Positions 3,005-58,623 of a stretch of DNA of 64,000 nucleotides are shown here, piece after piece. Within the stretch, counting starts at the first letter, position 1. Every line of letters begins with the position of its first letter. A model generated the notes under the pieces. It saw nothing but the letters and a program-made list of their open reading frames with translations, did not search any database and was not told where the DNA came from. The DNA is taken from the NCBI GenBank assembly GCA_029865605.1, contig JAOUGE010000004.1, forward strand, positions 2,562 through 66,561, written 5' to 3'. Made by a program: the position numbers and the translations under genes. Source of the DNA: Candidatus Berkelbacteria bacterium (GTDB lineage Bacteria > Patescibacteriota > UBA1384 > DTJR01).

Positions 3005-4114
3005 ATGCCCGATGTTTTAGGTAATCAACAAACAAATCAACAGGATCCGTCTAGTCTCGACTCAAGCCAAGGTAAATCGCCGCTTGAGGAAGACGCTCTG
3101 AATTCTCCGCCAAGTCCTCCGCCTCCGCCCTCTCCTTCAGGACCGGAACCTCCTCCTCCACCTCCAGCTGAGCCAACACCGCCGGCAGCGCCGCCGAGTG
3201 AAACTCCGAGCAATCCAAACGGCTCCGTACCCGATACGGAAGAATTTTTAAAAAGTATTTTAGAGGAGAGTCCTCCCGCTCCTGCTTCGCCTGAAGCTCC
3301 CGCGCCCGGAGCGCCGCCGCCTGCACCACCTCCACCTCCTCCGTCACCAACTGCGCCGCCAGCGGCGGAGGCTGAAGCTCCGCCCCCACCCCAGACAGGC
3401 GAGCCGAAAATAAAAGATAGTGTAAGCGGTTGGGACGATATTATGGCTCCTCCGGAGTCGGCTCAAGTTGGCCAAGCACCCCCACCGAGCGGAGGGGTAA
3501 GCCAAGATGTGGTTGGGGCAATGTCGAGTCAGCCGCAAGGCGGCAAGGGGCCCCTTAAGTTAATAATTCTGATCGTTGTCGTTGTTGCTATAGCGATTGG
3601 CGGCTATTTTGCCTATACTACTTTCTTCTCAACGTCTTCGCAGCAGCCAACAGAAGAATCTCTCACAACAGCTCCATCTCCTGTGGCTATTCAGACCGGT
3701 GACGAGGTTAGGAAAAGTGATTTGGCGAATCTGCAGGAAGCCCTTAAGAATTATTATGCCGGTTCTGGGAGCTATCCGCTGGCTGAGAAGCTGATTCTTT
3801 TAGGCAGTGAGGACAATGCCTTGACAACGGCGTTGGTACCAACATATATTGAAAAAATCCCACTCGATCCTGATTATCCCTCCAAGCAGTACGGTTATAT
3901 CTCTGACGGTAAGACATTTACCCTTTCAGCGATTATGGACTCAAGTGACGATCCCGCGGTAGTTTCAGAGGGCGGCTTGTATCTTTACAAAGTAACCCCG
4001 ACTACGCTAGTCTCTACTCAAGGAGAAGCAACTGCAGTTTCATCTTCGCCGACATCCGGGGAATTAGAATTCGAGACGGAGTCGGAGCTTGAGTCAGAAG
4101 GCTTGAATCTTTAA
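3005..4114 (+). CDS. proline-rich membrane-anchored protein with C-terminal T2SS GspG/pseudopilin-like domain
   Basis: RBS GGAGGG upstream. About 180 aa Pro/Ala-rich low-complexity, internal TM helix (LIILIVVVVAIAIGGYFAY), then DLANLQEALKNYYAGSGSYP...IEKIPLDPDYPSKQYGYISDGKTFTLSA resembling the GspG C-terminal domain. Confidence 0.5.
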   Translation: MPDVLGNQQTNQQDPSSLDSSQGKSPLEEDALNSPPSPPPPPSPSGPEPPPPPPAEPTPPAAPPSETPSNPNGSVPDTEEFLKSILEESPPAPASPEAPAPGAPPPAPPPPPPSPTAPPAAEAEAPPPPQTGEPKIKDSVSGWDDIMAPPESAQVGQAPPPSGGVSQDVVGAMSSQPQGGKGPLKLIILIVVVVAIAIGGYFAYTTFFSTSSQQPTEESLTTAPSPVAIQTGDEVRKSDLANLQEALKNYYAGSGSYPLAEKLILLGSEDNALTTALVPTYIEKIPLDPDYPSKQYGYISDGKTFTLSAIMDSSDDPAVVSEGGLYLYKVTPTTLVSTQGEATAVSSSPTSGELEFETESELESEGLNL

Positions 4115-6089: not shown

Positions 6090-6116
6090 TTATTTATTTC
6101 TGGTTCTAAAATGGGT

Positions 6117-6147
6117 CGAGGCCGCCTATGGAAGGCGGCCTCGGAAT
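6117..6147 (+). terminator. GC-rich hairpin downstream of htpX
   Basis: GAGGCCGCC-tatggaa-GGCGGCCTC perfect 9-bp stem immediately after the htpX stop; no U-tract, so it could instead be an RNA structural element. Confidence 0.35.
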
Positions 6148-6348
6148 GGGTTCGTTGACGAGAGGCCCTCTGGCGACGCAATGTGCGGCTCGCGCCATGA
6201 AGTGGAAGCTAACGCGGCCGGGGCTATAGAACGTCTAGCCCGCCCGCCGCGAAACCTCATCATCAACGAACGATAAAATATACCACTTTTCCTTGAAATT
6301 GTCAATACCCTATGACACAATCAGATTAGGCTTGTTATCCTAAATAAT

Positions 6349-8070
6349 ATGATCAACAAAACCTGTCGACAGTGTAAAAAAGAATTCGCAGTCGAGGACG
6401 ACGACCTCTCATTTTACAAAAAAATCTCCCCCACTTTTGCCGGAAAGACCTTTGATATCCCCCCGCCAACCTCGTGTCCGGAGTGTCGTCAGATGCGTCG
6501 GCTTGCCTGGCGTAATGAAAGGTCGATTTATAAACGAAAATGCGATAAAACAGGCAGAGAAATCGTCAGCATTTTTTCTCCTGACAAAAAAGATTACACT
6601 GTTTACGATCAGCAGATCTGGTGGGGTGACACTTGGGACGCTATGGAATATGGACAGGACTTTGATCCCAACCAGCCGTTTTTTAAGCAATTAGGCCTGC
6701 TCAATAAAAAAGTACCTAAGCTCTCTTTAAATAATATAAACACGGTAAATAGCGAGTACGGCAATCACGTGATGGAGATAAAAAACTGCTATATGTCGGT
6801 AGTTACTTATTATGGCAGTGAGGACGTGCATTATTCTTACGGGGCATTCACTTGTAAAAACTCCATTGACTTATTCATCAGCGAGAAGTGTGAAAACAGC
6901 TATCGCCTTATATATTGTGACAACTGTTATAATTGCCGATATTCTCAACGGCTCAACAATTGCACTGATTGTTATTATTCTATTGATCTGACGGCGTGCT
7001 CGAATTGCCTTTTTTGCTCGAACTTAAAGCACAAGGAATACCACATTCACAACAAAAAATATTCTAAAGAAGATTACGAAAAAGAGCTGCAAAAATATGA
7101 TTTTGGTTCTTGGGAAAAATCAAAGCAATATTGGCAGGAGTTTGTTGAGTTAAAAAATAACTCGATCGTTAAGTTCGCTAACAATGTAAATTGCGATAAT
7201 TGTTCGGGCGATGATTTGACAAATTGCAAGGATGTGAAGTATTCCTTCAGCCAGAAGAGATCGGAACATTCAAAATACAGTTTGCGAGGGGTAAATGATA
7301 AATACTGCTATGACTATATGGGTGGGGACATAGAGTGGGGTTATGAGTTTTTGAGCTCGGGCTATGGCAGCTCTATTTTATTTTGCTATTTAGAAGAAAG
7401 GTCGGCAAACTTGGCTTATTGCATAAGCTGCTTTGGCTGCCGAGATTGCTTTGGGTGTGTGGGATTGAAGAATAAACAGTACTGCGTATTTAATAAAGAG
7501 TATTCAAAGGAAAGTTACGAAGCTTTTGTAGCAAAAATTATTGAGAGGATGATGGCGGATAAAGAGTGGGGAGAGTTTTATCCCTATCAAATGTCGCCGT
7601 TTGGTTTTAACGAGACGCTTGGCTATTCTTATTATCCAATCAAAAAAGAGGAAGCACTAAAGCTTGGCGCCAAGTGGCAGGACGATGATTTCGGTATTAA
7701 ATTTGATGGTAAATTCTATGAGCCGGAAGACGATATTGAAGAGTATAACAAGAGCCAAGAGAAGCGGGAAGAACTGTTGAATGGCGTATTGAAGTGCGAA
7801 GTTTCCGGCAAGCCGTTTAAAATAGTTCCGCAGGAACTTGCATTTTATATGGAACAAAAAGTCCCGATTCCGAGGAAACATTATGACATTAGATACAAAG
7901 AAAATTTTGCTCTTCAGAATCCCCGTAAACTCTGGCATCGCCAATGTGTGTGTGAAGAAAAAGGTCACGGTCACGAGGGAAGATGTAAAAACGAATTCGA
8001 GACAACATACGCTTCCGACAGACCGGAAAAGGTGTATTGCGAAAAGTGCTACCAGAAATCTGTTATTTAG
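6349..8070 (+). CDS. cysteine-rich paralog A1 (zinc-ribbon-like termini, tandem CxxC repeat core), function unknown
   Basis: 573 aa. N-terminus CxxC...CPxCR...RRLAWRNER..YKRKC; C-terminus ELAFY..PIPRKHYD...HRQCVCEE.GHGHEGRC..FETTYAxDRPEKVYCEKCYQKSVI; homologous to six other ORFs in the window. Confidence 0.8.
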   Translation: MINKTCRQCKKEFAVEDDDLSFYKKISPTFAGKTFDIPPPTSCPECRQMRRLAWRNERSIYKRKCDKTGREIVSIFSPDKKDYTVYDQQIWWGDTWDAMEYGQDFDPNQPFFKQLGLLNKKVPKLSLNNINTVNSEYGNHVMEIKNCYMSVVTYYGSEDVHYSYGAFTCKNSIDLFISEKCENSYRLIYCDNCYNCRYSQRLNNCTDCYYSIDLTACSNCLFCSNLKHKEYHIHNKKYSKEDYEKELQKYDFGSWEKSKQYWQEFVELKNNSIVKFANNVNCDNCSGDDLTNCKDVKYSFSQKRSEHSKYSLRGVNDKYCYDYMGGDIEWGYEFLSSGYGSSILFCYLEERSANLAYCISCFGCRDCFGCVGLKNKQYCVFNKEYSKESYEAFVAKIIERMMADKEWGEFYPYQMSPFGFNETLGYSYYPIKKEEALKLGAKWQDDDFGIKFDGKFYEPEDDIEEYNKSQEKREELLNGVLKCEVSGKPFKIVPQELAFYMEQKVPIPRKHYDIRYKENFALQNPRKLWHRQCVCEEKGHGHEGRCKNEFETTYASDRPEKVYCEKCYQKSVI

Positions 8071-8111: not shown

Positions 8112-9770
8112 ATGACGAGAAAATGTATCTCATGTAAAAAAAATTTTGAGATTGAGAAAGAAGATTTAGCTTTTTACAAAAAAATTGGCCCTGTTATCAA
8201 TGAGAAAAAACTCGCAATCGATCCTCCTCGGGAATGTCCATCTTGCCGGGAGATCAGAAGGTGGGCTTATAGAAACCAGAGCTCGCTGTACAAGGCAAAA
8301 TCTGCCCTCTCCGGGGAAGAAATGATTTCTCTTTACCCTCCTATTACCGAATATACGGTATACAAAGAAAATGAGTGGTGGACGGACAAGTGGGATCCGC
8401 TTTCATACGGCCAAGAATATGATTTCTCCAGGCCATTTTTTGAACAGTTTTTCGAACTTCAAAAAAAAGTGCCGAGGCGGGCTCTCCAGCAGGACGGTAC
8501 TAACGAGAATTGCGAGTTTACTACCTACGGAACCAGTAATAAAAACTGCTATCTTGCCTTTGCTTGTAGTGTCTGTGAAGATGTCTACTATACTGATTGG
8601 TCTCATCAACTCAAAGATTGTATAGATTGTATTAAATGCGTGGGTGGTGAATTGCTATATGAGTGTGTAGATAGCAACAACTGCTATAATAGCATGCATT
8701 TAAAAGACTCTAACGCATGCCGGGAATCCTTTTTGCTTGAAGATTGCCAAAGTTGTGCCAATTGCATTTGCTGTAAAAATTTAGTCGAAAAAGAATATTA
8801 TTATTTCAACAAAAAAATCTCAAAACCCGAATATCAAAAAATAGTAGAAGAAGCAAAAAAAGACGATTTCAAGAAACTAGAAGAAAAGTTTAATAAATGG
8901 AAAAAGAGTCAGCCAGCTCGCTTTGCAAGGATTATCGGATCGGAAGAATGCACGGGTGATAATATTTTTAAGTGCAGAAACTGTAAGAAATGTTTTGACC
9001 TTTTGCTTGGAGCGGAGAATTGCAGGTATTGTTATTTCTGCGGAGGGGGTGCTAAGGAAATGTACGATTGCAATATGGCCGGCCAAGGGAGTGAGCTAAT
9101 TTATGAGATGCAAGCTACGGTTGGATCTTATAATTGCGCTTTTATTAACTTTTGTCGAATATCAAAAAATTGTTACTATTCTGATTCGCTTGGATCGTGT
9201 GATAGTTGTTTCGGTTGTATCGGCCTTAATCACAAAAACCATTGTATATTAAACGAGCAATACACAGAGGAAGAATACAAAAGATTACTGCCCAAAATTA
9301 TCGAGCATATGAGAAAGACCGGAGAGTGGGGGCGGGGTTTTCCGATTAAAAACTCGCCGTTTCCGTTTAACGATACTTCGGCATATGAACTTCATCCAAT
9401 CTCAAAGGAAGAGGCTTTAACGAAGGGCTACCTTTGGAATGACAATAAAGTTCTACCGCAAGACGAGAGCAAGATGACTAAAGACGTTTATCAATGCGTT
9501 TCCTGTCTAAGGAAATTCAAAATGATTCCGCACGAGTTATTTTTCTATGAAAGGATGAGCGTAAATAAACCCAAGCAATGCTTTTTCTGTCGAAGAAAAG
9601 AAAGACTAAAAAACAGAATCAGCTACTCGCTTTTTGAAAGAGAGTGCGTGTGCGAGGAGTCGGGTCACGGTCACGAGGGAAGGTGTAAGGTAGAATTTGA
9701 GACAACCTACGCACCGGATAGACCGGAGAAGGTATATTGTGAAGATTGTTATCAAAAATCTATTATATAA
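8112..9770 (+). CDS. cysteine-rich paralog A2
   Basis: 552 aa; shares the N-terminal CxxC/FYKKI module and the C-terminal CVCEESGHGHEGRC...YAPDRPEKVYCEDCYQKS module with the family. Confidence 0.8.
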   Translation: MTRKCISCKKNFEIEKEDLAFYKKIGPVINEKKLAIDPPRECPSCREIRRWAYRNQSSLYKAKSALSGEEMISLYPPITEYTVYKENEWWTDKWDPLSYGQEYDFSRPFFEQFFELQKKVPRRALQQDGTNENCEFTTYGTSNKNCYLAFACSVCEDVYYTDWSHQLKDCIDCIKCVGGELLYECVDSNNCYNSMHLKDSNACRESFLLEDCQSCANCICCKNLVEKEYYYFNKKISKPEYQKIVEEAKKDDFKKLEEKFNKWKKSQPARFARIIGSEECTGDNIFKCRNCKKCFDLLLGAENCRYCYFCGGGAKEMYDCNMAGQGSELIYEMQATVGSYNCAFINFCRISKNCYYSDSLGSCDSCFGCIGLNHKNHCILNEQYTEEEYKRLLPKIIEHMRKTGEWGRGFPIKNSPFPFNDTSAYELHPISKEEALTKGYLWNDNKVLPQDESKMTKDVYQCVSCLRKFKMIPHELFFYERMSVNKPKQCFFCRRKERLKNRISYSLFERECVCEESGHGHEGRCKVEFETTYAPDRPEKVYCEDCYQKSII

Positions 9771-15837: not shown

Positions 15838-17562
15838 ATGCCACAAACAAAACAATGTAAACAGTGTAGCCAGGAATTTCAGATAACAGATGATGATTTA
15901 GAATTTTTGAAGAAAGTAAGCCCGATTTTACAGGGGCAAACTATTTTAATCTCTCCGCCGACTCTCTGTCCGACTTGCAGAGAGATCAAGAGATTATGCT
16001 GGCGGAATGAGCGAAGTTTGTACAAAAGAAAATCGGATAAGTCAGGCAGGGAAATTGTTTCTATTTATTCGCCTGATAAAACCGATTATCAGGTGTATGA
16101 TATTTCCGAATATCAAAGCGATGAATTTGACCCGATGAGTTTCGGCCAGGAATATGATTTTTCAAAAAGCTTCTTTGCCCAATACGACGAATTGCTTCAT
16201 AAGGTTCCGAGAAAAGCTAGCAACACAACTAGAAATGAAAACAGTGACTACTGTAACCAAACATGGCAAACCAAAGATTCATATCTTTGTTTTAATGTTG
16301 GTTATGCTGAGAACTGCCTTTACTGCACAGAAGCTTTCCATGTTAAAAATTGTGTAGATTGTTTTGATATAAGAGATTGCGAGTATTGCTATAGTTGTTT
16401 TGATTGCGTTAACTGTAACAAATCGAAATATATTGAACACTGTAGAGATTGTTTTGAGTGCTATTTTATTTATGACTGTTTGGGTTGCAAAAATGTTGTT
16501 CTTTCCAGCGGCCTTCATAACAAACAGTATGTCTTTGAAAATAAACAGTTAACAAAAGAGGAATACGAAGAGAGGGTAAAAAACATCGATTTTTCCAGTA
16601 GAGCTGCAATGGATGAGCTTAAAAAGCGATTCGAAGAATTGAAAAAGAGTGCCATTCATCGCGAGAACAATAATATTTCTTCAGAAAATTGCACGGGAGA
16701 TTATTTGATCGAATGTAAGGATTGCACAGATTGTTATAATGCCCTGAAAAGTGAGGGGTGCAAAAGGGTTGCCGGAATTGATGATGCTTCGCGCGATTGT
16801 CGAGATATGAACATTATTACTGAGGCGGAGCTTTGCTATGAAGGCACAAGTGTGACCGGACACAAAAACCTTTTAAGCGTTTTTGTGGTCTATGGCAGTG
16901 ATAATATATATTGTAATTTTTGCGAAAATTGCAACAACTGCTTCGGGTGTGTCGGACTAAACCACAAACAATACTGCATCTTGAATAAACAGTATGCGAA
17001 AGATGAATATGAGAAACTGCTAGCAAAAACAATTGAGAAGATGAAAGAGGACAATGAGTGGGGAGAATTTTTCCCGATGAGCATTTCTCCGTTTGGTTAT
17101 AACGAGGCATTAGTAAATGCCTATCATCCAAAATCAAAAGATGAGGCAAAAAAACTTGGTGCAAAATGGCAAGACAATGATTATTCTCTTCAATATCAGG
17201 GTGAATTTTATGCGCCAAAGGATTCTATAAAGGAATATGTTGCCTCGAATGACGAAGTAAAAAATTTGCTCAATGGAGTCTTGGAATGCGAGACAAGCGG
17301 AAAAGCATTTAAGGTCATGCCGCAGGAAATCGCTTTTTACATGGAGCATAATATTCCTGTTCCATCCAAGCACTCTGAGATTCGATACGAAGAATTATTT
17401 AAAAAAAGAAATCCCCGTAAACTCCACCACCGCCAGTGTATGTGTGAAGAATCTGGCCACGATCATGGCGGACGTTGTCCTGTTGAATTTGAAACCACCT
17501 ACGCACCCGACCGGCCGGAGAAGATTTATTGTGAAAACTGTTATCAGAAATCAGTTATATGA
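15838..17562 (+). CDS. cysteine-rich paralog B1
   Basis: 574 aa; the same conserved termini as A1 (CKQCSQEF..DDDLEF.KKVSP...CPTCREIKRLCWRNERSLYKRK; ...HRQCMCEESGHDHGGRC..FETTYAPDRPEKIYCENCYQKSVI). Confidence 0.8.
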   Translation: MPQTKQCKQCSQEFQITDDDLEFLKKVSPILQGQTILISPPTLCPTCREIKRLCWRNERSLYKRKSDKSGREIVSIYSPDKTDYQVYDISEYQSDEFDPMSFGQEYDFSKSFFAQYDELLHKVPRKASNTTRNENSDYCNQTWQTKDSYLCFNVGYAENCLYCTEAFHVKNCVDCFDIRDCEYCYSCFDCVNCNKSKYIEHCRDCFECYFIYDCLGCKNVVLSSGLHNKQYVFENKQLTKEEYEERVKNIDFSSRAAMDELKKRFEELKKSAIHRENNNISSENCTGDYLIECKDCTDCYNALKSEGCKRVAGIDDASRDCRDMNIITEAELCYEGTSVTGHKNLLSVFVVYGSDNIYCNFCENCNNCFGCVGLNHKQYCILNKQYAKDEYEKLLAKTIEKMKEDNEWGEFFPMSISPFGYNEALVNAYHPKSKDEAKKLGAKWQDNDYSLQYQGEFYAPKDSIKEYVASNDEVKNLLNGVLECETSGKAFKVMPQEIAFYMEHNIPVPSKHSEIRYEELFKKRNPRKLHHRQCMCEESGHDHGGRCPVEFETTYAPDRPEKIYCENCYQKSVI

Positions 17563-19280
17563 GCCAAAATAAAACGTGCAAGCAGTGTAATGAACAATTT
17601 ATCGTTGAAGACGAAGATCTAGAGTTCTACAAAAAAATCTTTCCGACTTTTGCCGGTAAAACTTATCATATCCCGCCGCCGACGCTGTGTCCGGATTGCA
17701 GGATGATAAGACGGCTTCTTTGGCGCAACGAGAGAGCCCTTTATAAACGGAAATGTGAACGTACGGGTAAAGAAATTGTATCGATCTATTCTCCCGACAA
17801 AAAGCATTTTAAGGTGTGGAATCAAGACGAGTGGTATAAGGACAATTGGGACCCGCTCGATTTTGGGAGGACATATAACTCTTCCGAGTCGTTCTTTAAA
17901 CAGTTTTATGAATTGCAGCAAAATGTCCCGCGTCCCGCAATGAGTTTTTTTAATTGCGAAGATTGCTATTATTGCAATTTCGTCTGGAATGCTAAAAAAT
18001 GTTATCTCTGTTGGGCAACGATGGATCTTGAGAATTGTATGTATTCGACGAGATCATTTGAATCGGTCGGATGTGTTGACTGTATTGATACGAGAAATAG
18101 CCAGCATTGCTACAGTTGTCTTGACTGCGAGAATTGCTATAAAGCTAGGTACTCAGAACGATGTAAGGATTGCTCAGAGATTTCTTTTTGTTTCGACTGT
18201 CGAGGATGTAAAAATATCTATCTTTGCACGAATCTTAGGAACAAACAATATTATATTCGGAACAAGCAGTACAGCCGCGAAGAGTATTTCCGTGTTTTAG
18301 AAAAAAATGCGGGGAGCATATCGCGGGGGAAGCAAGATACTGCCGAGTTGAAAGAGATGGAGGAAAAGTCAATTCATCCTGAAAATTACAACCTGAAGTG
18401 TGAGGACTGCTCGGGGGATTATCTGACCGAATGTAAAAACTGTTCTGAGTGTTTTTTGGTCGCCAAATCTGAAAGCAGCAAGTATATTTTGAGCGGAAAC
18501 CAGAATATAAATCATAGCTACGATATATACCAAAATGTAGATAGCGAATTTAGCTACGAAGGAATCGGCGGCTCGGGATATAAAAATATTTTTTGTGCTT
18601 GGATGATGCGCGGTAATGATAATTATTACTGTAATTTTTGTGAAAGCTGCTCAAATTGTTTTGGTTGTTTTGGGTTGAAACAAAAACAACACTGCATTTT
18701 AAACAAACAGTATTCCAAAGAGGAATACGAGAAGATTGTGTCTGAAATAATAGAGAAAATGAGCAAAGACAAGGAATGGGGCGAATATTTTCCCTCTTGG
18801 TCAGCGCCATTTTGTTACAACGAGACTATGGCAAATACCTGGTTTCCAAAGTCCCGTGACGAAGCGGTGAAGCTTGACGCCAAATGGCAAGACAATGATT
18901 ATATCCCGAATTATTCGGGAGATTATTACTCGCCTAAAGACAAAATTGAAGAATACATTGGCAACAAAGAAGAACAGGAAAAAATGGTGGAAGGGGTACT
19001 GAAGTGCGAGGTTTCGGGAAAACCATTTAAGATTATGCCTCAAGAGCTTAATTTTTATATTGAGAACAAAATTGCGATACCGACTAAGCACTATGAAGTT
19101 AGGTACTTGGAGAGATTTAATCTTAGGAACCCCCGCAAGCTTTACCGTCGCCAGTGTATGTGTGAAGAACCGGGACATAATCATGAGGGAAGATGCAAAA
19201 TTGAGTTTGAGGCTACCTACGCACCCGATCGGCCGGAGAAGATTTATTGTGAAAACTGTTATCAAAAGACGGTAATATGA
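17559..19280 (+). CDS. cysteine-rich paralog B2
   Basis: 573 aa; ATGA overlap with the B1 stop; conserved family termini. Confidence 0.8.
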   Translation: MSQNKTCKQCNEQFIVEDEDLEFYKKIFPTFAGKTYHIPPPTLCPDCRMIRRLLWRNERALYKRKCERTGKEIVSIYSPDKKHFKVWNQDEWYKDNWDPLDFGRTYNSSESFFKQFYELQQNVPRPAMSFFNCEDCYYCNFVWNAKKCYLCWATMDLENCMYSTRSFESVGCVDCIDTRNSQHCYSCLDCENCYKARYSERCKDCSEISFCFDCRGCKNIYLCTNLRNKQYYIRNKQYSREEYFRVLEKNAGSISRGKQDTAELKEMEEKSIHPENYNLKCEDCSGDYLTECKNCSECFLVAKSESSKYILSGNQNINHSYDIYQNVDSEFSYEGIGGSGYKNIFCAWMMRGNDNYYCNFCESCSNCFGCFGLKQKQHCILNKQYSKEEYEKIVSEIIEKMSKDKEWGEYFPSWSAPFCYNETMANTWFPKSRDEAVKLDAKWQDNDYIPNYSGDYYSPKDKIEEYIGNKEEQEKMVEGVLKCEVSGKPFKIMPQELNFYIENKIAIPTKHYEVRYLERFNLRNPRKLYRRQCMCEEPGHNHEGRCKIEFEATYAPDRPEKIYCENCYQKTVI

Positions 19281-20986
19281 GTATCAATCAAACCTGCAAA
19301 CAGTGTCAAAAGGAATTCTCGGTCGACAATGAAGAATTAGCCTTGCTAGATAAACTTTCTCCAACTGTTGGCGGACAAAAGCTAGATATTCCTGTACCAA
19401 CACACTGTTTTAGCTGTAGGGCAAAAAGACGTTTAGGCTGGCGAAATGAAAGGTCGCTTTACAATCGCAAATGTGACAAATCCGGTAAAGAGATTGTTTC
19501 AGTGTATCCGCCCGATTCGGAGTATAAAGTCTTTGAACAAAAGGAGTGGTGGGGCGATGGATGGGATGCCAAGGATTATGGGCAGGACTTCGATTTTACA
19601 AAATCCTTTTTTGAGCAGTTTGCAGAACTAAATAAAAAAGTCCCTAAATGTGCACTCCTAAATAAAAATCCGGATAATAGTGATTACCTAAATCGCGCCG
19701 AAGATAATAAAGACAGTTATATGTCTTTTGACCTTGGATGGAACGAAAAAATTTTTTATTCAAGGACTATTTATAATTGCAACAATCTCATTGATTGTAC
19801 TTTTTGTAGAGATCATTGCTCTTTTTCTTACGAATGCCTGAATTGTAATTCTGTTGTTAGCTCTAGTTATTGCATTGATTCTTCCAAACTATCTGAATGC
19901 CATTTTTGTTTTAATTTGCATGGTTGCCAAAACTGTATATTTTGCGCCAACCTGCATAACAAACAATATTGTATTGAAAATAAACAGTACTCCAAAGAAG
20001 AATTCGAGCAAAAGCTGAAAGAATATGACTTTGGGTCTTATCAAAAAATTCAGGAATATAAAACTAGATTCGCCAATATTGTAAAAAGTTGTGTTCATAA
20101 ATATGCGAGTAATTTAAAATGTGAGAATTGTAGTGGGGATTATCTTGAAAATTGTAAGAATATTAAAATCAGTTTTGGGGTGAAGAATTCTGAAAATGGA
20201 AGATATATGTTCGATTCCGAAAGAGGTAAAGATACAATGGATGATTGCTTTTCTGGCGGTGAGGGAGCAGAACTAAATTATGAAGTGCTTGGAGCTGGCT
20301 GGCCATACAACACGAAGTTCAATAATTCGTCGTGGCACTGCTCAAATGTCATTTATATAAACTTTTGCCAACACTGCAAGGATTGCTTTGGATGTTCGAA
20401 CATGAAAAGAGCACAGTACTGCATCCTGAATAAGCAATATTCCAAAGAAGAATACGAGAAATTAATACCCAAGATCGTGGAACATATGAAAAAAACAGGC
20501 GAATGGGGCGAGTTTTTTCCACTTCAGATGTCTGAGTTTAGTTATAACGAATCTGTTGCAAACGAGTACTTTCCTCAATCCAAAGAAGAAGTTTTACAAA
20601 ACGGTTGGAAGTGGAAAGATAAAGTCGACAACCTGGTACCGTCATCCGGTTATGTAATTGCGGACAATATTAATGAGATAACAAATGAAATTTTAGAAAA
20701 GGTATTAGTTTGTGAAGTCACCAAAAGACCTTATAAAATTCAGTCCCGGGAGCTCGCATTTTATATCGAACAAAATATCCCAATTCCTCACAAGCATCCC
20801 GATCAACGTCACCACGAGCGGCTTTCATTGCGCAACGCACTAAAGCTCCATCACCGCCAATGTATGTGCGAGGAATCTGACCATGACCATTCCGGGCGCT
20901 GTCCCGTTGAGTTTGAAACTACTTATGCTCCAGATCGGCCGGAAAAAGTGTATTGTGAAAACTGTTATCAGAAGACGGTTATATAA
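19277..20986 (+). CDS. cysteine-rich paralog B3
   Basis: 569 aa; ATGA overlap with the B2 stop; conserved family termini. Confidence 0.8.
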   Translation: MSINQTCKQCQKEFSVDNEELALLDKLSPTVGGQKLDIPVPTHCFSCRAKRRLGWRNERSLYNRKCDKSGKEIVSVYPPDSEYKVFEQKEWWGDGWDAKDYGQDFDFTKSFFEQFAELNKKVPKCALLNKNPDNSDYLNRAEDNKDSYMSFDLGWNEKIFYSRTIYNCNNLIDCTFCRDHCSFSYECLNCNSVVSSSYCIDSSKLSECHFCFNLHGCQNCIFCANLHNKQYCIENKQYSKEEFEQKLKEYDFGSYQKIQEYKTRFANIVKSCVHKYASNLKCENCSGDYLENCKNIKISFGVKNSENGRYMFDSERGKDTMDDCFSGGEGAELNYEVLGAGWPYNTKFNNSSWHCSNVIYINFCQHCKDCFGCSNMKRAQYCILNKQYSKEEYEKLIPKIVEHMKKTGEWGEFFPLQMSEFSYNESVANEYFPQSKEEVLQNGWKWKDKVDNLVPSSGYVIADNINEITNEILEKVLVCEVTKRPYKIQSRELAFYIEQNIPIPHKHPDQRHHERLSLRNALKLHHRQCMCEESDHDHSGRCPVEFETTYAPDRPEKVYCENCYQKTVI

Positions 20987-52449: not shown

Positions 52450-54699
52450 ATGAGCCAAGAAGATCTTTTAGTTGCGAAAGATTATGTTATTAAGCTGCCT
52501 AGAGCGGTTGCTTTTGAACCGAAGGCGTTTAGCGAATTTTTGCGTACTACCTCAAGGATAATGAAAAACCTTCCCTTTGCTTTTCTTATGACGATGGAGG
52601 GAAAGAAAATTTATTACGGAATAAGATCTAACAGAAGCTATTATAATGTCATTGAAAATCAGCTTTACTCCGCCTTTCCTGGCGTTGAAGTGGAAGAAAC
52701 TGAAAGAGAGATGTTTTCGGGTAGGTTTGAAAACGGGGCCAGAGCAATCCTTTGGCTTAAGCACGGCGACTTTTATCCGTTTTTAAAACACGATCAGATT
52801 GAAGGGGATTTTCTGGCTGATTTCTATAACCAATTCACTCATCTTACAGCCCAAGATCAGTTTTATTTTCAGGTGAAGATTTGTCCTTTGGACTATAATC
52901 GGATGAGATTTTCCCTAGCGAGGAGTTTAAGACTGGGTATGAAAAGTCTTAGAGATAGAGTTAATATTATTGAGGCAGTAACCTCCAAAAAGGCTTCGGC
53001 CGGGGTAAAGAGAATGGCTTACGAAGCGGCCATTGAGAAAAACAAACAGCCTCTTTTTCTCTGCGAGATTGATTTGGTTGTTTACTCTGACAGTTATGAA
53101 ACGGCGAGATTGAAATTGGAGCCGATTGCCCATGTATTTCAGAAACTAGAGAGCGATTATAATGAGTTTTATTATAAAATTCAACCCCTAGCCGAGTCGG
53201 ATGTTGATGAACTAAGATCATTTAAATTCGGCCGCCAGGCGGTTTGTTTGGCACCGGACGAACTTTCCACGATCTACCACTTCCCGCCTCACACTGACCA
53301 GGTGCCCAATCTTTATAAAATTATGTCGCCCAAAGCCGAGCCGCCAATAGGGCTCCCGACTCCAGACAATACTCCACCCGAAGAGTTGTGCCTTTTTGCC
53401 CAAACTAACTATCGAAATATCAGGGAGATTTTTGGCATCAAACGCCGCGATCGCGTCCGCCACATGTATATGATTGGCAAGTCTGGCTCTGGCAAGTCTA
53501 AACTGATGGAGTTGATGATTAAAAACGACATCGAACAAGGCCATGGTGTTTGCGTGATTGACCCTCACGGCGACTTAATTGAGAATATTCTTCCTTTTGT
53601 CCCCGAGTCAAGAGTTAAAGACACGATCTATTTTAATCCGGTTGACGAGGAATATCCGATTTCTTTTAACCCGCTGGAAAAAGTTGACCGAATGTACCGC
53701 CAGCAGGTGGCGAGCGGCTTGATCGAAATATTTAAGAAGACCTTTGGCGCTAACTGGTCACCGCGGCTTGAGCATGTCTTGCGAATGACAATATTGGCTC
53801 TTCTTGATGCGCCCAGAGCTTCGGTGATGTCGATTCTCCTTCTTTTAACCGACAGGGAGTATAGGCAAGAAGTGATAAAAAATATTGAGGATCAAGTCGT
53901 CAAGAATTTCTGGACCAATGAATTTGCCAGCTGGAGCGAAAAGTTTGACAGCGAAGCGATTATGCCCGTTTTGAACAAAATCGGCCAGTTTGTATCAACT
54001 ACGGTTATTAGAAATATCGTTGGTCAGGAAGAAAACAAAATCAATATGAAAGATATTATGGATAATCGCAAGATTATTTTCGTTAAGCTCCCCAAGGGAG
54101 TGTTAAACGAAGAAAACACCTCGCTTCTTGGCGCAATGGTTATTACCAAAATCTATCAGAACGCTCTGGCCCGTTCGGAAGTTCCCGAGCACCAGCGAGT
54201 TCCATTCTATCTTTACGTTGACGAGTTTCAAAACTTTGCCACCGATACTTTTTCAAATATTCTGTCGGAGGCAAGAAAATATAAATTGAGTTTAACCCTG
54301 GCCCACCAGTATGTTTCGCAGCTAAGCGATCTTATTAAGAGAACGGTTTTTGGTAATGTCGGTTCGATTGTTTCGTTTAGAGTAGGCCCCGAGGACGCCT
54401 TGCTTTTAGCTAAAGAGTTTGAGCCGAGATTTACCGATGCTGATATTGTCAATCTTGGCGTGAGGGAAATTTATCTAAAACTTTCAATTGACGATGAGAT
54501 TAGAGAGGCCTTCTCGGCTAGAACCCTGGCAATGCCGCAGGTTGAGACGAGCTTCAAAGAGCAGATTGTTGCCTTCACCCGTGAGAATTACTGTCGCTCT
54601 AGAGAAACCGCCGAACATGAAATCAGCCGCGAAAAATCGAAAGAAATGGAAGTTCTTGATAAACTCAAAGGCGAAAACTTCTCCGCGCCGATTTTATAA
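52450..54699 (+). CDS. DUF87/HerA-FtsK-superfamily ATPase of the TraD/VirD4/TraG coupling-protein type
   Basis: Walker A MIGKSGSGKSKLM, CVIDPHGDL (the xIDPxGE/D motif of DUF87 and T4 coupling proteins), Walker B LYVDEFQNF, arginine finger region; 749 aa. Confidence 0.6.
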   Translation: MSQEDLLVAKDYVIKLPRAVAFEPKAFSEFLRTTSRIMKNLPFAFLMTMEGKKIYYGIRSNRSYYNVIENQLYSAFPGVEVEETEREMFSGRFENGARAILWLKHGDFYPFLKHDQIEGDFLADFYNQFTHLTAQDQFYFQVKICPLDYNRMRFSLARSLRLGMKSLRDRVNIIEAVTSKKASAGVKRMAYEAAIEKNKQPLFLCEIDLVVYSDSYETARLKLEPIAHVFQKLESDYNEFYYKIQPLAESDVDELRSFKFGRQAVCLAPDELSTIYHFPPHTDQVPNLYKIMSPKAEPPIGLPTPDNTPPEELCLFAQTNYRNIREIFGIKRRDRVRHMYMIGKSGSGKSKLMELMIKNDIEQGHGVCVIDPHGDLIENILPFVPESRVKDTIYFNPVDEEYPISFNPLEKVDRMYRQQVASGLIEIFKKTFGANWSPRLEHVLRMTILALLDAPRASVMSILLLLTDREYRQEVIKNIEDQVVKNFWTNEFASWSEKFDSEAIMPVLNKIGQFVSTTVIRNIVGQEENKINMKDIMDNRKIIFVKLPKGVLNEENTSLLGAMVITKIYQNALARSEVPEHQRVPFYLYVDEFQNFATDTFSNILSEARKYKLSLTLAHQYVSQLSDLIKRTVFGNVGSIVSFRVGPEDALLLAKEFEPRFTDADIVNLGVREIYLKLSIDDEIREAFSARTLAMPQVETSFKEQIVAFTRENYCRSRETAEHEISREKSKEMEVLDKLKGENFSAPIL

Positions 54700-54790: not shown

Positions 54791-56509
54791 ATGGCTATTA
54801 ATAAAACCTGCAAACAGTGTAAAAAAGGATTCGTGGTTTTGGATGATGATTTGGTCTATTTGGACAGAATTTCGCCAACCTTCGCGGGTAAAAAGTTCTC
54901 TGTTCCGGCACCATCTCTTTGTACGGACTGTCGCATGCAGAGGCGCGTAGCTTGGAGAAACGAAAGAAATCTTTATAAGAGAAAGTGCGATCTTTGTCAA
55001 GAACAGATAGTTGCTTTATATGAACAAGATTCGCCATTCGCAGTTTATTGCCAAAAATGCTTTTGGTCGGATAAGTGGAACCCACTAGAATTTGCTAAAG
55101 ATTATGATCCTTCAAGGTCTTTTATCGAACAGATTAAAGAAATACAAAAAAAAGCTCCTCGCCTAGCCCTCCTTAATACTTTTTCGGAAAATTCGGAGTT
55201 TACTAATCATTCCTCAAAAAATAAGGATTGCTATTTAGTTTTTGCTTCGTTTGATAATGAGCGCGTCATGTACTGCCGAAAAACTCGTAACTCCAAAGAT
55301 ATCTTGGATTGCACGACCTGTTTTTACGGCTCAGAGCTTTGTTACGAATGTTTTTTGATTGAGAATTGTTATTCCTTGAAATATTCAGTCAACTGCAAGA
55401 ACTGCTCAAATTCCAATTTTCTTTTTGATTGTCTGGACTGTAAGGATTGTTACATGTGTTACGGGCTTCGTAATAAACAGTATTATTTTGAAAATAAGCA
55501 ATTAAGCGAAGAGGAATATAAAAGAAGGATACCTAACTTAGGATCTCGCAAAATTCGAGATGCCGAAAGAAAAAGATTCATAGAATTTTCGAAAGATGCT
55601 GTACGCAAATATGCGAGATTTACAAACTCCGAGAATTCCACTGGTGATGATCTTATTAATTGTTCGAGATGTGTTAATTGTTATGATGTTGAAAAAGCTG
55701 AAGATTGCAAGAATTTTGAGCATGGCGAAGTCCTTAATTGGTGCGTTGATTGTTATGGTGCCGGTAACCCCGGGGAGTATCTTTACGAAGTGCACGGTAT
55801 CTTAGATGGTCATAATTGTGCTTTTACGCACGCTAGCTATCATTCGTCCCGTGTCTACTATTGTGATAATTGCCAAAACTGTCAGGATATTTTTGGCTGT
55901 GTCAGTTTAAAAAAATCTCAATATGCAATTTTAAATAAGCAATATTCGCGTGATGAATACGAAAAGAAAATTGCCGAAATAATTGAAAAAATGACCCAAG
56001 CTGGTGAGTGGGGAGAATTTTTCCCAATCGGTATGAGCCCATTTGCCTATAATGAAACCTTGGCTTCTGAATATTTTCCTCTTAAAAAAGAGGGGGTTGA
56101 GGCAATTGGCGCTAAATGGAGAGATATCACCCATGAAAAAATTAATATAGAAACAGTCATCCCGCATGATGATATATCTGTCTACATCGATTCAAAAGAG
56201 GAGGTAGAAAAATTATTAGCCTCTGCTATAAAATGTTCGGTAACCGGTATTCCTTTTAGAATCTTGCCGCAGGAAATGGTTTTCTATTTGAAAGAAAAAA
56301 TCCCGGTCCCGGAAATTCATTATGATGCACGTCATGCCGAGAGACAGAAATATGTTAACCCCCGCAAGCTTTGTAAGCGCCAATGCATGTGCGAAGAACA
56401 AGGACACCACCACGAAGGAAGATGTAAAGTAGAATTTGAAACCACATACACACCCGATAGGCCAGAGAAAGTATATTGCGAGAGGTGTTACCAGAAATCA
56501 GTTATTTGA
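54791..56509 (+). CDS. cysteine-rich paralog C1
   Basis: 572 aa; conserved family termini (CKQCKKGF...CTDCRMQRRVAWRNERNLYKRKCD; ...QCMCEEQGHHHEGRC...TPDRPEKVYCERCYQKSVI). Confidence 0.8.
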   Translation: MAINKTCKQCKKGFVVLDDDLVYLDRISPTFAGKKFSVPAPSLCTDCRMQRRVAWRNERNLYKRKCDLCQEQIVALYEQDSPFAVYCQKCFWSDKWNPLEFAKDYDPSRSFIEQIKEIQKKAPRLALLNTFSENSEFTNHSSKNKDCYLVFASFDNERVMYCRKTRNSKDILDCTTCFYGSELCYECFLIENCYSLKYSVNCKNCSNSNFLFDCLDCKDCYMCYGLRNKQYYFENKQLSEEEYKRRIPNLGSRKIRDAERKRFIEFSKDAVRKYARFTNSENSTGDDLINCSRCVNCYDVEKAEDCKNFEHGEVLNWCVDCYGAGNPGEYLYEVHGILDGHNCAFTHASYHSSRVYYCDNCQNCQDIFGCVSLKKSQYAILNKQYSRDEYEKKIAEIIEKMTQAGEWGEFFPIGMSPFAYNETLASEYFPLKKEGVEAIGAKWRDITHEKINIETVIPHDDISVYIDSKEEVEKLLASAIKCSVTGIPFRILPQEMVFYLKEKIPVPEIHYDARHAERQKYVNPRKLCKRQCMCEEQGHHHEGRCKVEFETTYTPDRPEKVYCERCYQKSVI

Positions 56510-56583
56510 TTATTACGAGTTTAGCGAGTTAGCGAGTTTCAACCCGCTAAATAACCAACTTGCCAAATAAAAAATAAATTAAT

Positions 56584-58308
56584 ATGCCTTTATCCAAAAC
56601 CTGCAAGCAATGTAGTCAGCAATTCACGGTAGAAGATGAAGACTTAGAATTCTACAAAAAAGTCTCCCCGACTTTGGGTGGAAAAACTTACGAATGGCCG
56701 GCGCCGACATTATGTATGTTTTGCCGGGGAATGAGACGGCAAGCTTGGCGCAACGAAAGAAATCTCTATAAGACTAAATGCGCTAAATCCGGCAAGGAAA
56801 TTGTAAGCGTTTATTCACCAGACAAGACCGACTATAAAGTGTATGAACTTTCCGAATGGTGGAAAGATGATTGGGACGCGATGCAATATGGCAAGGAGTT
56901 TGATTCCTCGCGGGGATTTTTTGATCAGTTTGATGAGTTATTAAAAGCTGTGCCAAGACTGTCTCTCTTTAATACCCAAACTCAAAACTGCGATTATGTA
57001 AACTACACGGCTGAATGCAAAGACTGCTATATGTCCTCCGTTATTTATTATCAATGCGATAAAGTTCATTATTCATATCTGACTTATTATTCGAAAAATA
57101 GCATTGACATAGGGTATTGTGACAAAGTTGAAAACTGCTACGAGCTGGTCAGCAGTAATGGTTGCTATGGTTGTCGGTATTCGAATCGTTTAACGAATTG
57201 TCGCGACTGCTATTTTTGCCAGGATTTAAATGGCTGCTCAGATTGCATTTTGTCAAACAACCTAACTCGCAAACAGTATTGCGTCAGAAATAAACAGTTA
57301 ACAAAAGAAGAATATGAAAAAGAAAAAAAGGAATTAGATCTTGGCTCCTATCAAAAAGTTAATGAATACTTGAAAGAATATGAGCAAATGAGAAAGGGGG
57401 CGATCGTCAAATTTGCCAATCTGCTTAATTGCGAGAATTGCGAGGGCGATAATTTGATTAACTGCAAGAATGTTAAGAAATGTTTTAGCGCAGTCAGGGT
57501 TGAAAATAGCCGTTATTCGTTTGATCAAGAGGATGGGAAAAATATCTATGACTGTGAAGGCGGCTCTTACGAGTGGGCGGTTGAATCAAACCACACAGGA
57601 TTTGGCTCTAACTTTATCGTCTGTTCTGGAGTTTTGAATTCCAGTTTTCTTTATTATTGTGAAAATTGCCATAACTGCCGTGATTGTTTCGGCTGTGTCG
57701 GTTTAAGGGGCAAGCAATTCTGCGTTTTTAATAAGCAATATAGCAAGGAAGAATATGAGCAGTTAGTAGAAAAAATTATTAAGAAGATGGTAGAAGGTGG
57801 CGAATGGGGCGAATTCTTCCCCTTTAGATTGAGTCCTTTTGGGTATAATGAATCACTGGCTAATGATTATCATCCCAAAACGAAAGAAGAGGTAAAAGGA
57901 ATCGGTGCTAAATGGCAGGATAATGATTATTCGCTTAAATACGATGGCCCCTTTTATGAACCCAAAGATAATATTAAGGACTATATTGAAAATGAGGGGG
58001 AAAGGAACAAACTGCTGGCTGGTATATTAAAGTGCGAGGTCTCGGGCAAGCCGTTTAAGCTGGTTCCGCAAGAACTCGCCTTTTACTTTGAGCAGGGAGT
58101 TCCTATACCACGCAGGCACTATGATGTTCGCTACAAAGAGCGGTTTAAGATGAGAAATCCCAAAGTATTACACCATCGCCAGTGTGTGTGCGAAGAACAA
58201 GGGCATGAGCATGAAGGAAGATGTGAGAACGAATTTGAAACGACCTATGCGCCGGATCGTCCGGAGAAAATATACTGCGAGAGGTGCTATCAGAAAAGCG
58301 TTGTGTAG
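56584..58308 (+). CDS. cysteine-rich paralog C2
   Basis: 574 aa; conserved family termini (CKQCSQQF..EDEDLEFYKKVSP; ...HRQCVCEEQGHEHEGRC...YAPDRPEKIYCERCYQKSVV). Confidence 0.8.
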   Translation: MPLSKTCKQCSQQFTVEDEDLEFYKKVSPTLGGKTYEWPAPTLCMFCRGMRRQAWRNERNLYKTKCAKSGKEIVSVYSPDKTDYKVYELSEWWKDDWDAMQYGKEFDSSRGFFDQFDELLKAVPRLSLFNTQTQNCDYVNYTAECKDCYMSSVIYYQCDKVHYSYLTYYSKNSIDIGYCDKVENCYELVSSNGCYGCRYSNRLTNCRDCYFCQDLNGCSDCILSNNLTRKQYCVRNKQLTKEEYEKEKKELDLGSYQKVNEYLKEYEQMRKGAIVKFANLLNCENCEGDNLINCKNVKKCFSAVRVENSRYSFDQEDGKNIYDCEGGSYEWAVESNHTGFGSNFIVCSGVLNSSFLYYCENCHNCRDCFGCVGLRGKQFCVFNKQYSKEEYEQLVEKIIKKMVEGGEWGEFFPFRLSPFGYNESLANDYHPKTKEEVKGIGAKWQDNDYSLKYDGPFYEPKDNIKDYIENEGERNKLLAGILKCEVSGKPFKLVPQELAFYFEQGVPIPRRHYDVRYKERFKMRNPKVLHHRQCVCEEQGHEHEGRCENEFETTYAPDRPEKIYCERCYQKSVV

Positions 58309-58620: not shown

Positions 58621-58623
58621 CTT

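Follow-up and report, generated by a model that had tools for sequence, protein, structure and literature searches.

The window, by which we mean the whole stretch of 64,000 nucleotides analysed here, carries at 6349..8070 (+) an open reading frame that runs from ATG to stop and encodes a protein of 573 amino acids, 33 of them cysteines. The question raised by this locus is what so many cysteines are for, and whether the protein is a chain of metal sites or a folded repeat protein in which they serve another purpose. An earlier reading of the letters alone (the sequence-only reading) had placed the gene at 6349-8070, which agrees with the ORF, and had described a set of paralogs. The set consists of seven full-length family members in the window, starting at 6349, 8112, 15838, 17559, 19277, 54791 and 56584; these genes, as well as the protein segments and the ATPase gene described below, are on the + strand.

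Identity of the other window paralogs to the 6349 protein is 37-56%. The second gene (8112..9770) follows in tandem and encodes 552 amino acids, with a deletion in the acidic-linker region. A three-paralog array covers 15838..20986 (15838-17562, 17559-19280 and 19277-20986, with 4-base overlaps between the genes), and paralogs 6 and 7 lie at 54791..58308 (54791-56509 and 56584-58308). Hydropathy and the N-terminal sequence of the 573-aa protein gave neither a signal peptide nor a membrane segment (the maximum Kyte-Doolittle score over 19 residues is 1.31, and a zinc finger begins at residue 6), and the protein is predicted to be soluble.

Our main reading, to which we assign a probability of roughly 70%, joins an architecture to a packing role for the core cysteines. 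The order of the parts is a treble-clef finger with a zinc ribbon, a beta-solenoid, a second beta-solenoid, a conserved loop, an acidic linker and again a treble-clef finger with a zinc ribbon. The full-length AF2 model has a pLDDT of 94.9 and a pTM of 0.91. A self-BLAST of the whole protein returned the diagonal alone, and the internal homology was seen by segment and profile comparison.

An ancient duplication of the end modules had been proposed from the letters, and both BLASTP and hhalign bear it out. Profile-profile comparisons of the end modules gave probabilities of 99.5-99.8% (E 1.3e-22 and 6.3e-28); the latter E-value, with a probability of 99.8%, belongs to the alignment of residues 4-92 (N-terminal module) with residues 481-569 (C-terminal module). 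BLASTP of residues 1-75 against residues 461-573 gave an E-value of 2.6e-5, and the same comparison against a paralog that keeps its cysteines gave 4.9e-8. Judged by these alignments, the end modules are two copies of one two-zinc module. Two points had been missed by the sequence-only reading. Each end module has two zinc sites and not one, a PF13451-type treble clef and a CxxC-x18-CxxC ribbon, and in each module of the 573-aa protein one site is degenerate, the site lost being a different one in the two modules. By sequence, of four ancestral zinc sites the protein thus keeps the ligands of only two, those of the treble clef at its N-terminus and of the ribbon at its C-terminus. Most family members have one site of each finger pair without ligands, all 16 finger cysteines being retained in 45 of 369 members.

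Conservation of the cysteines was evaluated on 369 homologs, using phi as the correlation between cysteine positions. The N-terminal treble-clef finger (residues 1-60, 6349..6528) has C6, C9, C43 and C46 as its ligand set, which is CCCC in 342/369 homologs, together with an F..DDL.FYKK motif and a basic helix, CR..RR...RNE; the segment has a pI of 9.1. The degenerate N-terminal zinc ribbon (residues 61-96, 6529..6636) aligns with the intact C-terminal ribbon and has C65 alone left of C65/C68/C87/C90. This set is CCCC in 85/369 homologs, and positions 68, 87 and 90 are retained or lost jointly (phi 0.98-1.00); paralog 6 (54791) retains the ribbon cysteines as CDLC...CQKC.

The degenerate treble clef of the C-terminal module (residues 479-530, 7783..7938) keeps C483 and has S, H and I at positions 486, 511 and 514. 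Its four positions are CCCC in 111/369 homologs, the ligands again being lost jointly (phi 0.81-0.99), and all four are kept in paralog 2 (C462, C465, C490, C493). Though without its full ligand set, the finger retains PQELAFY, its basic helix and the conserved non-ligand residues E496 and R515, both invariant, and the segment has a pI of 9.7. The C-terminal zinc ribbon tail (residues 531-573 and the stop codon, 7939..8070) has C533, C546, C564 and C567, which are CCCC in 362/369 homologs, and an insert with C535, H540 and H542 that is present as a whole block in 138/369 and absent as a whole block in 166/369. This tail is the best-conserved segment of the protein (81% identity among the seven paralogs). 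Gene conversion was considered as the source of this conservation and was ruled out, since the synonymous codon identity of the tail (0.49) is no higher than that of the remainder of the gene (0.40-0.50), and this speaks for purifying selection.

Scanning the window family proteins against Pfam and NCBIfam gave nothing above cutoff, and no model in either collection covers the 260-residue core. The gathering cutoff of PF13451 (zf_Tbcl) is 24 bits and that of PF23477 (zf_Tbcl_2) is 27 bits. Neither the 6349 protein nor paralog 2 matches PF13451 even at E 10, and in the aligned N-terminal region 7 of the 9 homologs scanned score 25-34 bits; the C-terminal module of the family protein P0204 also matches, with 31 bits. 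Shared with PF13451 is the motif CxxC...F.[IV]...[DE]..FY...P..C..CR followed by a basic helix, and the two CxxC pairs that make up its complete ligand set are found in the N-terminal copy and are not found in the C-terminal copy of the 6349 protein, which has C, S, H and I. PF23477, which matches at the extreme C-terminus, scores 14.4 bits for paralog 2 and 18-27.1 bits for homologs, and TIGR04272 matches weakly there (17.9 against a cutoff of 36). PF13451 and PF23477/TIGR04272 are small stand-alone domains of unknown function, whereas here two pairs of such fingers flank a double solenoid. NF045844 (BC85_0335, 'putative methyltransferase') matched paralog 2 at E 0.029 and was absent in 10 other members; we regard it as a chance match.

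The end modules also resemble LIM domains, marginally, and as sequences they show resemblance and not membership. Like a LIM domain, each module has two Cys4 fingers in succession, and the second finger, C-x2-C-G-K-x-[IL]...Y-C-x2-C-[FY], aligns with finger 2 of LIM (CRIP 1iml and CRP1 1b8t, PDB E 0.02-0.08). The Pfam LIM match in P0204 covers the second finger only (E 0.005; 17.4 bits, with the cutoff at 22.9). Unlike in LIM, there are no H-x2-C ligands and no 2-residue spacer between the fingers, and the first finger is of the long-loop PF13451 type.

Between the end modules lie two cysteine-rich blocks, both of them ending in NKxY..NKQYSKEEYE, as had been read from the letters. All motifs quoted in that reading are present, although the spellings NKQY..NKQYSKEEYEK and EWGEFFP/SPFGYNE are those of the paralog consensus and not the exact letters of the 6349 copy. 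What had been missed is that block 1 is homologous to block 2 (hhalign E 1.5e-36 over 128 columns; BLASTP E 4e-13). On these alignments the blocks are two copies of one solenoid unit. Each copy starts with an N-cap, continues with the 12-residue coils, is closed by an arch (NKxY..NKQY) and finishes with a cap helix (SKEEYE).

The tandem CxxC periodicity is significant, and a lack of significant repeats, named in the sequence-only reading as an outcome that would speak against it, did not occur. The 573-aa protein has 13 CxxC pairs where 1.85 +/- 1.29 are expected from 5000 shuffles, and 87% of the cysteine pairs no more than 24 residues apart are spaced by a multiple of 3 (33% expected). Neither figure was reached in any of the 5000 shuffles, a result that extends to every one of the seven paralogs. 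The profile autocorrelation peaks at lag 12 with a base period of 3, and in solenoid 1 one residue phase in three is 37% Cys, 15% Ser, 10% Leu and 5% Val.

In the AF2 model both blocks are beta-solenoids, with runs of 4-residue strands at a period of 6. Nor is the core disordered or of low confidence, the other such outcome: pLDDT is 95-98 in block 1 and 70-98 in block 2 (70-82 at its start, then 92-98). Block 1 modelled alone has a pLDDT of 86, with strand lengths that differ from those of the full-length model. Foldseek was run against PDB, with models of the full length and of the core, and also against BFVD. Only beta-solenoid proteins came back, none of them a strong match: the lowest E is 8e-4, TM does not exceed 0.27 and rmsd is above 8 A. 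This supports solenoid as the fold class, and no specific relative.

Solenoid 1 (residues 125-237, 6721..7059) is preceded by a helical connector with the N-cap (residues 97-124, 6637..6720; YG.DFD...PFF.Q...L..KVP; AF2 helices 98-101 and 111-121), in which P123 is invariant and F111, F112 and Q114 nearly so. Its 12-residue repeats have the consensus C-x-[DN]-C-[YL]-[YF]-C-x-[DN]-[CL]-x-[NG]; residues 192-226 read NCYNCRYSQRLNNCTDCYYSIDLTACSNCLFCSNL. The solenoid is closed by NL.NK.Y...NK, and residues 226-246, LKHKEYHIHNKKYSKEDYEKE, lead into the SKEDYEKE cap helix and a helical hairpin (residues 238-275, 7060..7173; AF2 helices 240-247 and 255-271), where the paralogs diverge most (29% identity). 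Solenoid 2 (residues 276-385, 7174..7503) is less regular, with AF2 strands at 309-380, and ends in CFGCVGLKNKQYCVFNKEY. Residues 373-393, LKNKQYCVFNKEYSKESYEAF, reach into its cap helix (386-403; AF2 helix 387-403), which together with the EWGEFYP...SPFGFNET...P loop region (404-445) covers 7504..7683. In this loop, where residues 406-422 read EWGEFYPYQMSPFGFNE, E406, W407, G408, P412, Y420, N421, P430 and W443 are nearly invariant (150 homologs). The acidic linker that follows (residues 446-478, 7684..7782) is variable, with 30% identity among the paralogs and a charge of -7.

The two groups of cysteines behave differently in the 369 homologs. In the fingers a ligand set is either whole or gone (phi 0.81-1.00). 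In the core, single positions switch from Cys to Ser, Leu, Val or Ile without taking the others along, and phi does not exceed 0.42; the strongest correlations there link residues spaced by 12 (202-214, 196-208 and 190-202). The number of cysteines per block ranges across homologs from 5 to 21 in the first and from 4 to 19 in the second. Given this contrast, we take the core cysteines for packing residues and not for zinc-knuckle or ferredoxin ligands; they appear to pack the core of the predicted solenoids and to form no chain of metal sites. We attribute the density of CxxC to a small residue at every third position of the solenoid, most often Cys and otherwise Ser, Leu or Val, and this phase would face inward. 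A zinc or iron-sulfur site may exist locally at C205/C217/C220/C223, which are all Cys in 231/369, or at C370 and C379, each above 90%; AF2 models carry no metals.

The sequence-only reading had seen in the core an array of zinc knuckles, and among the alternatives this one survives best, as a chain of independent CxxC knuckles or a metallothionein-like store binding one metal per 10-12-residue unit or pair. Cysteines make up 5.8-7.7% of residues in strict CxxC spacing, three successive coils of the 6349 copy read C-x2-C-x2-S-x2-L, and two stacked CxxC pairs could in principle give four thiolates. In 63% of members every one of C205, C217, C220 and C223 is a cysteine, and a ZIP zinc transporter gene is found in the window (62373-63116). 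True zinc sites of this family are, however, all or none, while the core cysteines are lost singly even for 196-208 (phi 0.32), and no ligand set is conserved or lost per repeat unit in the 369 homologs. Some members hold just 4-5 cysteines per block, no His or Asp occurs in phase with the cysteines, and AF2 gives a regular beta-solenoid of very high confidence in place of small metal-dependent knuckles. We consider such an array unlikely.

A secreted or surface beta-helix with disulfide ladders, of the Tenebrio antifreeze type or the type of the Cys-rich CPR surface proteins and serving host attachment, is less probable still. The antifreeze protein TmAFP (1ezg) is a right-handed 12-residue beta-helix of TCTxSxxCxxAx repeats, and has in common with the family a 12-residue repeat with in-phase cysteines and a small residue at every third position (C, S, C, A in TmAFP; C, C/S, C/S, C/L here). 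Searching the PDB sequences with the full-length profile, with that of the core and with the end modules gave only non-significant matches, to LIM proteins and to TmAFP (E 1.4 and 0.43), the latter being the sole match bearing on a beta-helix. Divergent tandem paralogs are typical of surface-variation families. TmAFP is, on the other hand, secreted, with a conserved disulfide across each coil and a T-x-T face, and the family has no such face, no signal peptide or membrane segment, and no pairwise covariation of cysteines as disulfides would require. A zinc finger starts at residue 6, and CxxC occurs inside the first 15 residues in 319/369 members. Superposition on TmAFP by Foldseek is poor (rank 17, E 1.6, TM 0.18, rmsd 8.2 A). 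CPR genomes do encode cysteine-rich extracellular proteins (PMC4736985), which differ from the family, being far larger (~1655 aa) and having signal peptides.

About as hard to uphold is a left-handed beta-helix enzyme, either a hexapeptide-repeat acyltransferase or an enzyme like gamma-carbonic anhydrase. The top full-length Foldseek matches are GlmU, LpxD, LpxA and gamma-carbonic anhydrases (E 8e-4 to 5e-2), viral hexapeptide proteins are matched in BFVD, and the strand period is 6, but the superpositions have an rmsd of 8-20 A and no Pfam match to Hexapep (PF00132) was obtained. The super-period is 12 and not 18, and the small residues have a phase period of 3; in left-handed beta-helices the small-residue pattern has a period of 2. 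Neither a conserved catalytic His nor a zinc triad is present in the solenoids. Pentapeptide repeats (Qnr/MfpA) were also compared; there is no power or autocorrelation at period 5, and the Foldseek E-values are 0.28-0.9. Least probable is a polyferredoxin-like protein holding [4Fe-4S] clusters for electron transfer. Each paralog does have 3-8 CxxCxxC runs, but the cluster motif CxxCxxCxxxC(P) occurs in 0/7 paralogs and, as CxxCxxCxxxCP, in 0/369 members (the sequence-only reading had rightly set ferredoxin clusters aside), the cysteines of the runs are not conserved jointly, there is no Fer4 Pfam match, and no redox partners are found in the conserved neighbourhood.

The family is matched by 5240 clusters (50% identity level) when E is 1e-3 or lower and by 2181 when it is 1e-30 or lower, and all named matches come from the ultrasmall CPR/Patescibacteria; it is a large unnamed family with an unmodelled core. 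We found no published description of it in the literature on PF13451 and on Cys-rich, beta-helix and zinc-finger proteins of CPR/Patescibacteria. Two to seven family copies are present in 57 of 80 genome loci, and the source sample has at least 11 copies of ~1.7 kb each, apparently within one genome, a large investment if a genome of ~1 Mb is assumed. The family also serves as a worked example of how sequence statistics alone separate metal ligands, which are lost jointly, from packing cysteines, which drift singly.

Directly upstream of paralogs 6 and 7 lies a gene (52450..54699) for a soluble VirD4/TraG-like P-loop ATPase, with matches to the Pfam families TrwB_AAD_bind, T4SS-DNA_transf and DUF87 and a Walker A motif GKSGSGKS. 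It has no transmembrane segment, unlike canonical coupling proteins with their membrane anchor. In PADLOC the ATPase matches mad8 and HerA through the P-loop region only, and the family itself matches none of the PADLOC defence models. No other T4SS genes were found in the window ORFs and the conserved neighbours scanned.

In gene order the family is linked in both directions to this predicted ATPase. The ATPase is present in 16 of the 80 family-centred loci (directly adjacent and co-directional in 11), and family genes are present in 32 of the 58 ATPase-centred loci with enough flank, counts that are not independent events because the compared loci are phylogenetically related. Among ATPase-centred loci, family genes accompany ~15/18 of the close ATPase homologs and 5/13 of those at 33-37% identity. 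Patescibacteria genomes have about 2 VirD4-like genes each, mostly away from virB4 (PMC12102498); with this gene count and an assumed genome of 1 Mb, chance co-occurrence with an ATPase is ~3% per 13 kb window. Most family genes do not adjoin an ATPase, including the 6349 gene and the 15838 array. The role of VirD4-like ATPases in Patescibacteria was explicitly left open in the same study (PMC12102498), and the two-way linkage offers a concrete candidate partner for these orphan coupling ATPases.

We infer that the family proteins may be clients or adaptors of the neighbouring ATPase. They would form a non-enzymatic set of binding proteins, in which the constant parts would be the two basic finger modules and above all the C-terminal ribbon tail. 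Fingers and tail would dock a common partner, most likely the ATPase or alternatively nucleic acid, and the poorly conserved solenoids (35-38% identity) could offer surfaces that differ between paralogs. Expression would probably be under a TrmB-family regulator, the gene for which is found in 22 of the 80 family loci, mostly divergent and directly upstream. This functional part of the explanation is as a whole tentative and of low confidence.

More doubtful is the specific proposal, for which gene linkage and tail conservation speak, that the arrays encode the missing clients of the thousands of orphan VirD4-like ATPases in Patescibacteria, the ATPase recognising the C-terminal tail and either passing the client on for export into or onto a host or loading cargo such as DNA. 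In Xanthomonas, VirD4 recognises the X-Tfe/XVIPCD effectors by their conserved C-terminal domain. In both cases there are many divergent proteins with one strongly conserved C-terminal module and genes near a VirD4-type ATPase. The analogy is functional only: the sequences are not similar, and the present ATPase is without a membrane anchor and without other T4SS genes in the ORFs and neighbours scanned. If true, the client reading would give CPR bacteria a repertoire of their own, made up of zinc-capped solenoid proteins that differ in their binding surfaces.

A phage origin of the family was also considered and rejected, as tblastn gave no match in 50,697 phage records and 2.9 million IMG/VR contigs gave one partial match. 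As a separate observation, phrog_15341, of unknown function, matches the solenoid weakly (E 1e-6 to 2e-4).

The open reading frame at 6349-8070 (+ strand) is complete and encodes 573 amino acids, 33 of them cysteines. Seven full-length paralogs, this one counted, were found in the 64 kb window by tblastn and ORF listing; they lie on the + strand, start at 6349, 8112, 15838, 17559, 19277, 54791 and 56584, and are numbered here in that order. Identity to ORF 6349-8070 is 37-56%, and the three genes of the middle array (15838, 17559, 19277) overlap by 4 bases. The source genome belongs to Candidatus Berkelbacteria (locus tags OEV37_), and two other contigs of the same sample carry another three-copy array and a singleton, giving at least 11 family copies, apparently all in one genome. 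The singleton has a TrmB-family regulator gene on each side (contig L153, 9170-12499), the upstream one divergent and the downstream one convergent. The public gene call for the window protein (P0001) has 525 amino acids as opposed to 573. It appears to start at M49 (window 6349-6495), so that the N-terminal finger loses its first CxxC and its FYKK motif. Hundreds of homologs align with the 573-aa ORF from residue 1-4 onward.

The sequence-only reading had described similar zinc-ribbon modules at the two ends of the protein and two blocks of CxxC repeats between them, and this observation is confirmed. All motifs that it quoted are present in the ORF, some having been spelled as paralog consensus. 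The N- and C-terminal modules match each other by BLASTP (E 2.6e-5, or 4.9e-8 when the N-terminal module is compared with paralog 2, which retains its cysteines). Profiles taken from the family alignment of 150-369 sequences were compared by hhalign, where residues 4-92 align with 481-569 over 79 columns (probability 99.5-99.8%, E 1.3e-22 and 6.3e-28). The blocks are likewise homologous to each other (E 1.5e-36, 128 columns), in a match that runs from an N-cap through the repeats and the closing motif NKxY..NKQYSKEEYE to the helix after it. Periodicity is strong, with 13 CxxC motifs found and 1.85 expected, and 87% of close cysteine pairs spaced at a multiple of 3 where 33% would be expected; neither value was equalled by any of 5000 shuffles in any of the seven paralogs. 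The profile autocorrelation has its maximum at lag 12 on a base period of 3.

The core is predicted to be ordered and not a low-confidence disordered region. The AF2 model (150-sequence alignment) has a mean pLDDT of 94.9, a pTM of 0.91 and no segment below 50, and shows 4-residue strands every 6 residues at about 150-237 and 309-385, each run followed by a helix. Foldseek against the PDB returned beta-solenoid proteins only: left-handed beta-helices for the full model, and RP2/CAP, pentapeptide-repeat proteins, TmAFP, pectate-lyase-like proteins and tailspikes for block 1 alone, all of these matches being weak (TM at most 0.27, best E 8e-4). A viral structure library again gave solenoids, plus small 'zinc-ribbon domain' proteins matching the fingers. 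On these matches the modelled fold is assigned to the beta-solenoid class, without a close solved relative. The phage protein family phrog_15341 (276-position profile, function not assigned) weakly matches the solenoid repeats in three family members (E 9e-7 to 2e-4) at residues 155-229 and 287-372, e.g. window 6811-7035, so phages may carry a related solenoid.

The 12-mer repeat consensus is C-x-[DN]-C-[YL]-[YF]-C-x-[DN]-[CL]-x-[NG]. One sequence phase of three holds C (37%), S (15%), L (10%) and V (5%) and is preceded by an N- and D-rich phase; with moderate confidence, we infer that the cysteine phase points into the solenoid interior. Cysteine co-occurrence, measured on a 369-sequence alignment, separates the fingers from the core. 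The N-terminal treble clef (6, 9, 43, 46; all Cys in 342/369) and the C-terminal ribbon (533, 546, 564, 567; 362/369) are essentially invariant. Residues 68, 87 and 90 of the N-terminal ribbon (65, 68, 87, 90; all Cys in 85/369) are retained or lost together (phi 0.98-1.00), as are those of the C-terminal treble clef (483, 486, 511, 514; 111/369; phi 0.81-0.99). Core cysteines, in contrast, are nearly independent of each other (phi at most 0.42), and even the best-conserved set (205, 217, 220, 223; all Cys in 231/369) varies by single changes (CCCS in 43, SCCC in 22, and others). Their number ranges from 5 to 21 in one block and from 4 to 19 in the other. Among the best-correlated core pairs are 202-214, 196-208 and 190-202, and their spacing of 12 residues is the one that stacking from coil to coil should produce. 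This pattern favours cysteine as probably one among several small residues that the core accepts. Each solenoid may have a single metal site at its last coil. The main evidence against the array of zinc knuckles proposed earlier is the finger-core contrast within the same proteins, and ferredoxin clusters, already doubted in that proposal, are dismissed since their motif occurs in 0 of 369 members.

Homologs match Pfam PF13451 (zf_Tbcl) above cutoff at the N-terminus and, where the cysteines are retained, at the C-terminal module too, and PF23477 (zf_Tbcl_2) at the extreme C-terminus with a score about at cutoff; the window protein is below threshold for both. From these matches each end module is predicted to combine a treble clef with a downstream CxxC-x18-CxxC ribbon, a pair weakly resembling LIM (PDB E 0.02-0.08). 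All 16 ligands are retained in 45 of 369 members. In the window protein the N-terminal treble clef and C-terminal ribbon are intact and the modules have degenerated differently, C65 being the sole ligand left in the N-terminal ribbon and C483 in the C-terminal treble clef. In paralog 2 it is the C-terminal treble clef that is retained, in paralog 6 the N-terminal ribbon. With moderate confidence, the window protein would bind about two zinc ions, and perhaps one more at the C535/H540/H542 insert, which 138/369 members have as a block. The two treble-clef segments are basic, at pI 9.1 and 9.7, with R47, R51, R55 and N56 conserved in the first and E496 and R515 invariant in the second. The C-terminal ribbon tail has by far the highest identity among the seven paralogs (81%; solenoids 35-38%). 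Gene conversion was considered as its source and rejected, because synonymous codon identity is not raised in the tail (0.49 vs 0.40-0.50), which indicates purifying selection on old paralogs.

Clustered at 50% identity, the family comprises 5240 clusters when matches down to E 1e-3 are counted and 2181 when E 1e-30 is required; among the matches listed, nearly all are full length. Members are all annotated hypothetical, and every named match is from CPR/Patescibacteria (Berkelbacteria, Peri/Peregrinibacteria, Gracilibacteria, Nomurabacteria, Paceibacterota, Giovannonibacteria, Abawacabacteria, Magasanikbacteria, WS2). Tandem arrays of 2-7 copies within 13 kb occur at 57 of 80 genome loci, and the family is essentially absent from the phage collections searched. 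It is undescribed, yet made of known types of part, treble-clef fingers and a beta-solenoid; of note are how large it is, that it is confined to CPR bacteria and that it is linked to an ATPase.

This soluble VirD4/TraG-like P-loop ATPase is found at 16 of 80 family loci, adjacent and co-directional in 11, and in the window (52450-54699) immediately precedes paralogs 6 and 7. With about two VirD4-like genes per genome and an assumed genome of 1 Mb, one would fall within the same 13 kb by chance about 3% of the time. The reciprocal test holds: at metagenome loci centred on homologs of the window ATPase, with enough flank required, family genes are present at 32 of 58 (about 15/18 at 59% identity or more, 8/11 at 43-45%, 5/13 at 33-37%). 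A survey of 2918 Patescibacteria genomes counted 5713 VirD4-like genes, 148 of them near virB4, and left their role open (PMC12102498). The window ATPase matches the phage family phrog_5156 (function not assigned; E 5.8e-68, residues 182-734) and PADLOC mad8 (E 1.7e-12); its N-terminal ~300 residues have no Pfam match. A TrmB-family regulator is present at 22 of 80 family loci, mostly divergent and directly upstream. As to function, we give a probability of roughly 0.3 to the family proteins being non-enzymatic binders. Just as tentatively, the parts that stay constant, the basic finger modules and the C-terminal tail, may dock a partner common to all paralogs (the neighbouring ATPase or nucleic acid), and the divergent solenoid surfaces may give each paralog a specificity of its own.

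In the region 52450-58699, the ATPase and two paralogs sit exactly between tRNA-Ile(GAT) (51594-51670) and tRNA-Ala(TGC) (58624-58699). The 16S rRNA gene (43373-44834) is 6.7 kb upstream, beyond the genes for ClpB and an FG-GAP protein, and the window search gave no 23S; protein genes thus split what is usually a 16S-Ile-Ala-23S operon. A ZIP-family zinc transporter gene (62373-63116; Pfam Zip, E 1.5e-43) is located 4 kb downstream of the third array; the same genome encodes at least 11 of the zinc-finger proteins. At 3005-4114, a 369-aa ORF without a Pfam match has an extremely proline-rich stretch of about 150 residues at its start (PPPPPP, APPP runs) and then a single hydrophobic segment. 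Just upstream of ORF 6349-8070 is a 171-nt intergenic island of 61% GC (6105-6275; three other intergenic regions checked, 37-43%), with no match in Rfam (best isrJ, E 0.88) and no copies elsewhere in the window or in 80 related loci. It folds stably (MFE -77 kcal/mol, z -3.3; 1 of 200 shuffles as stable), and its first hairpin may be the htpX terminator.
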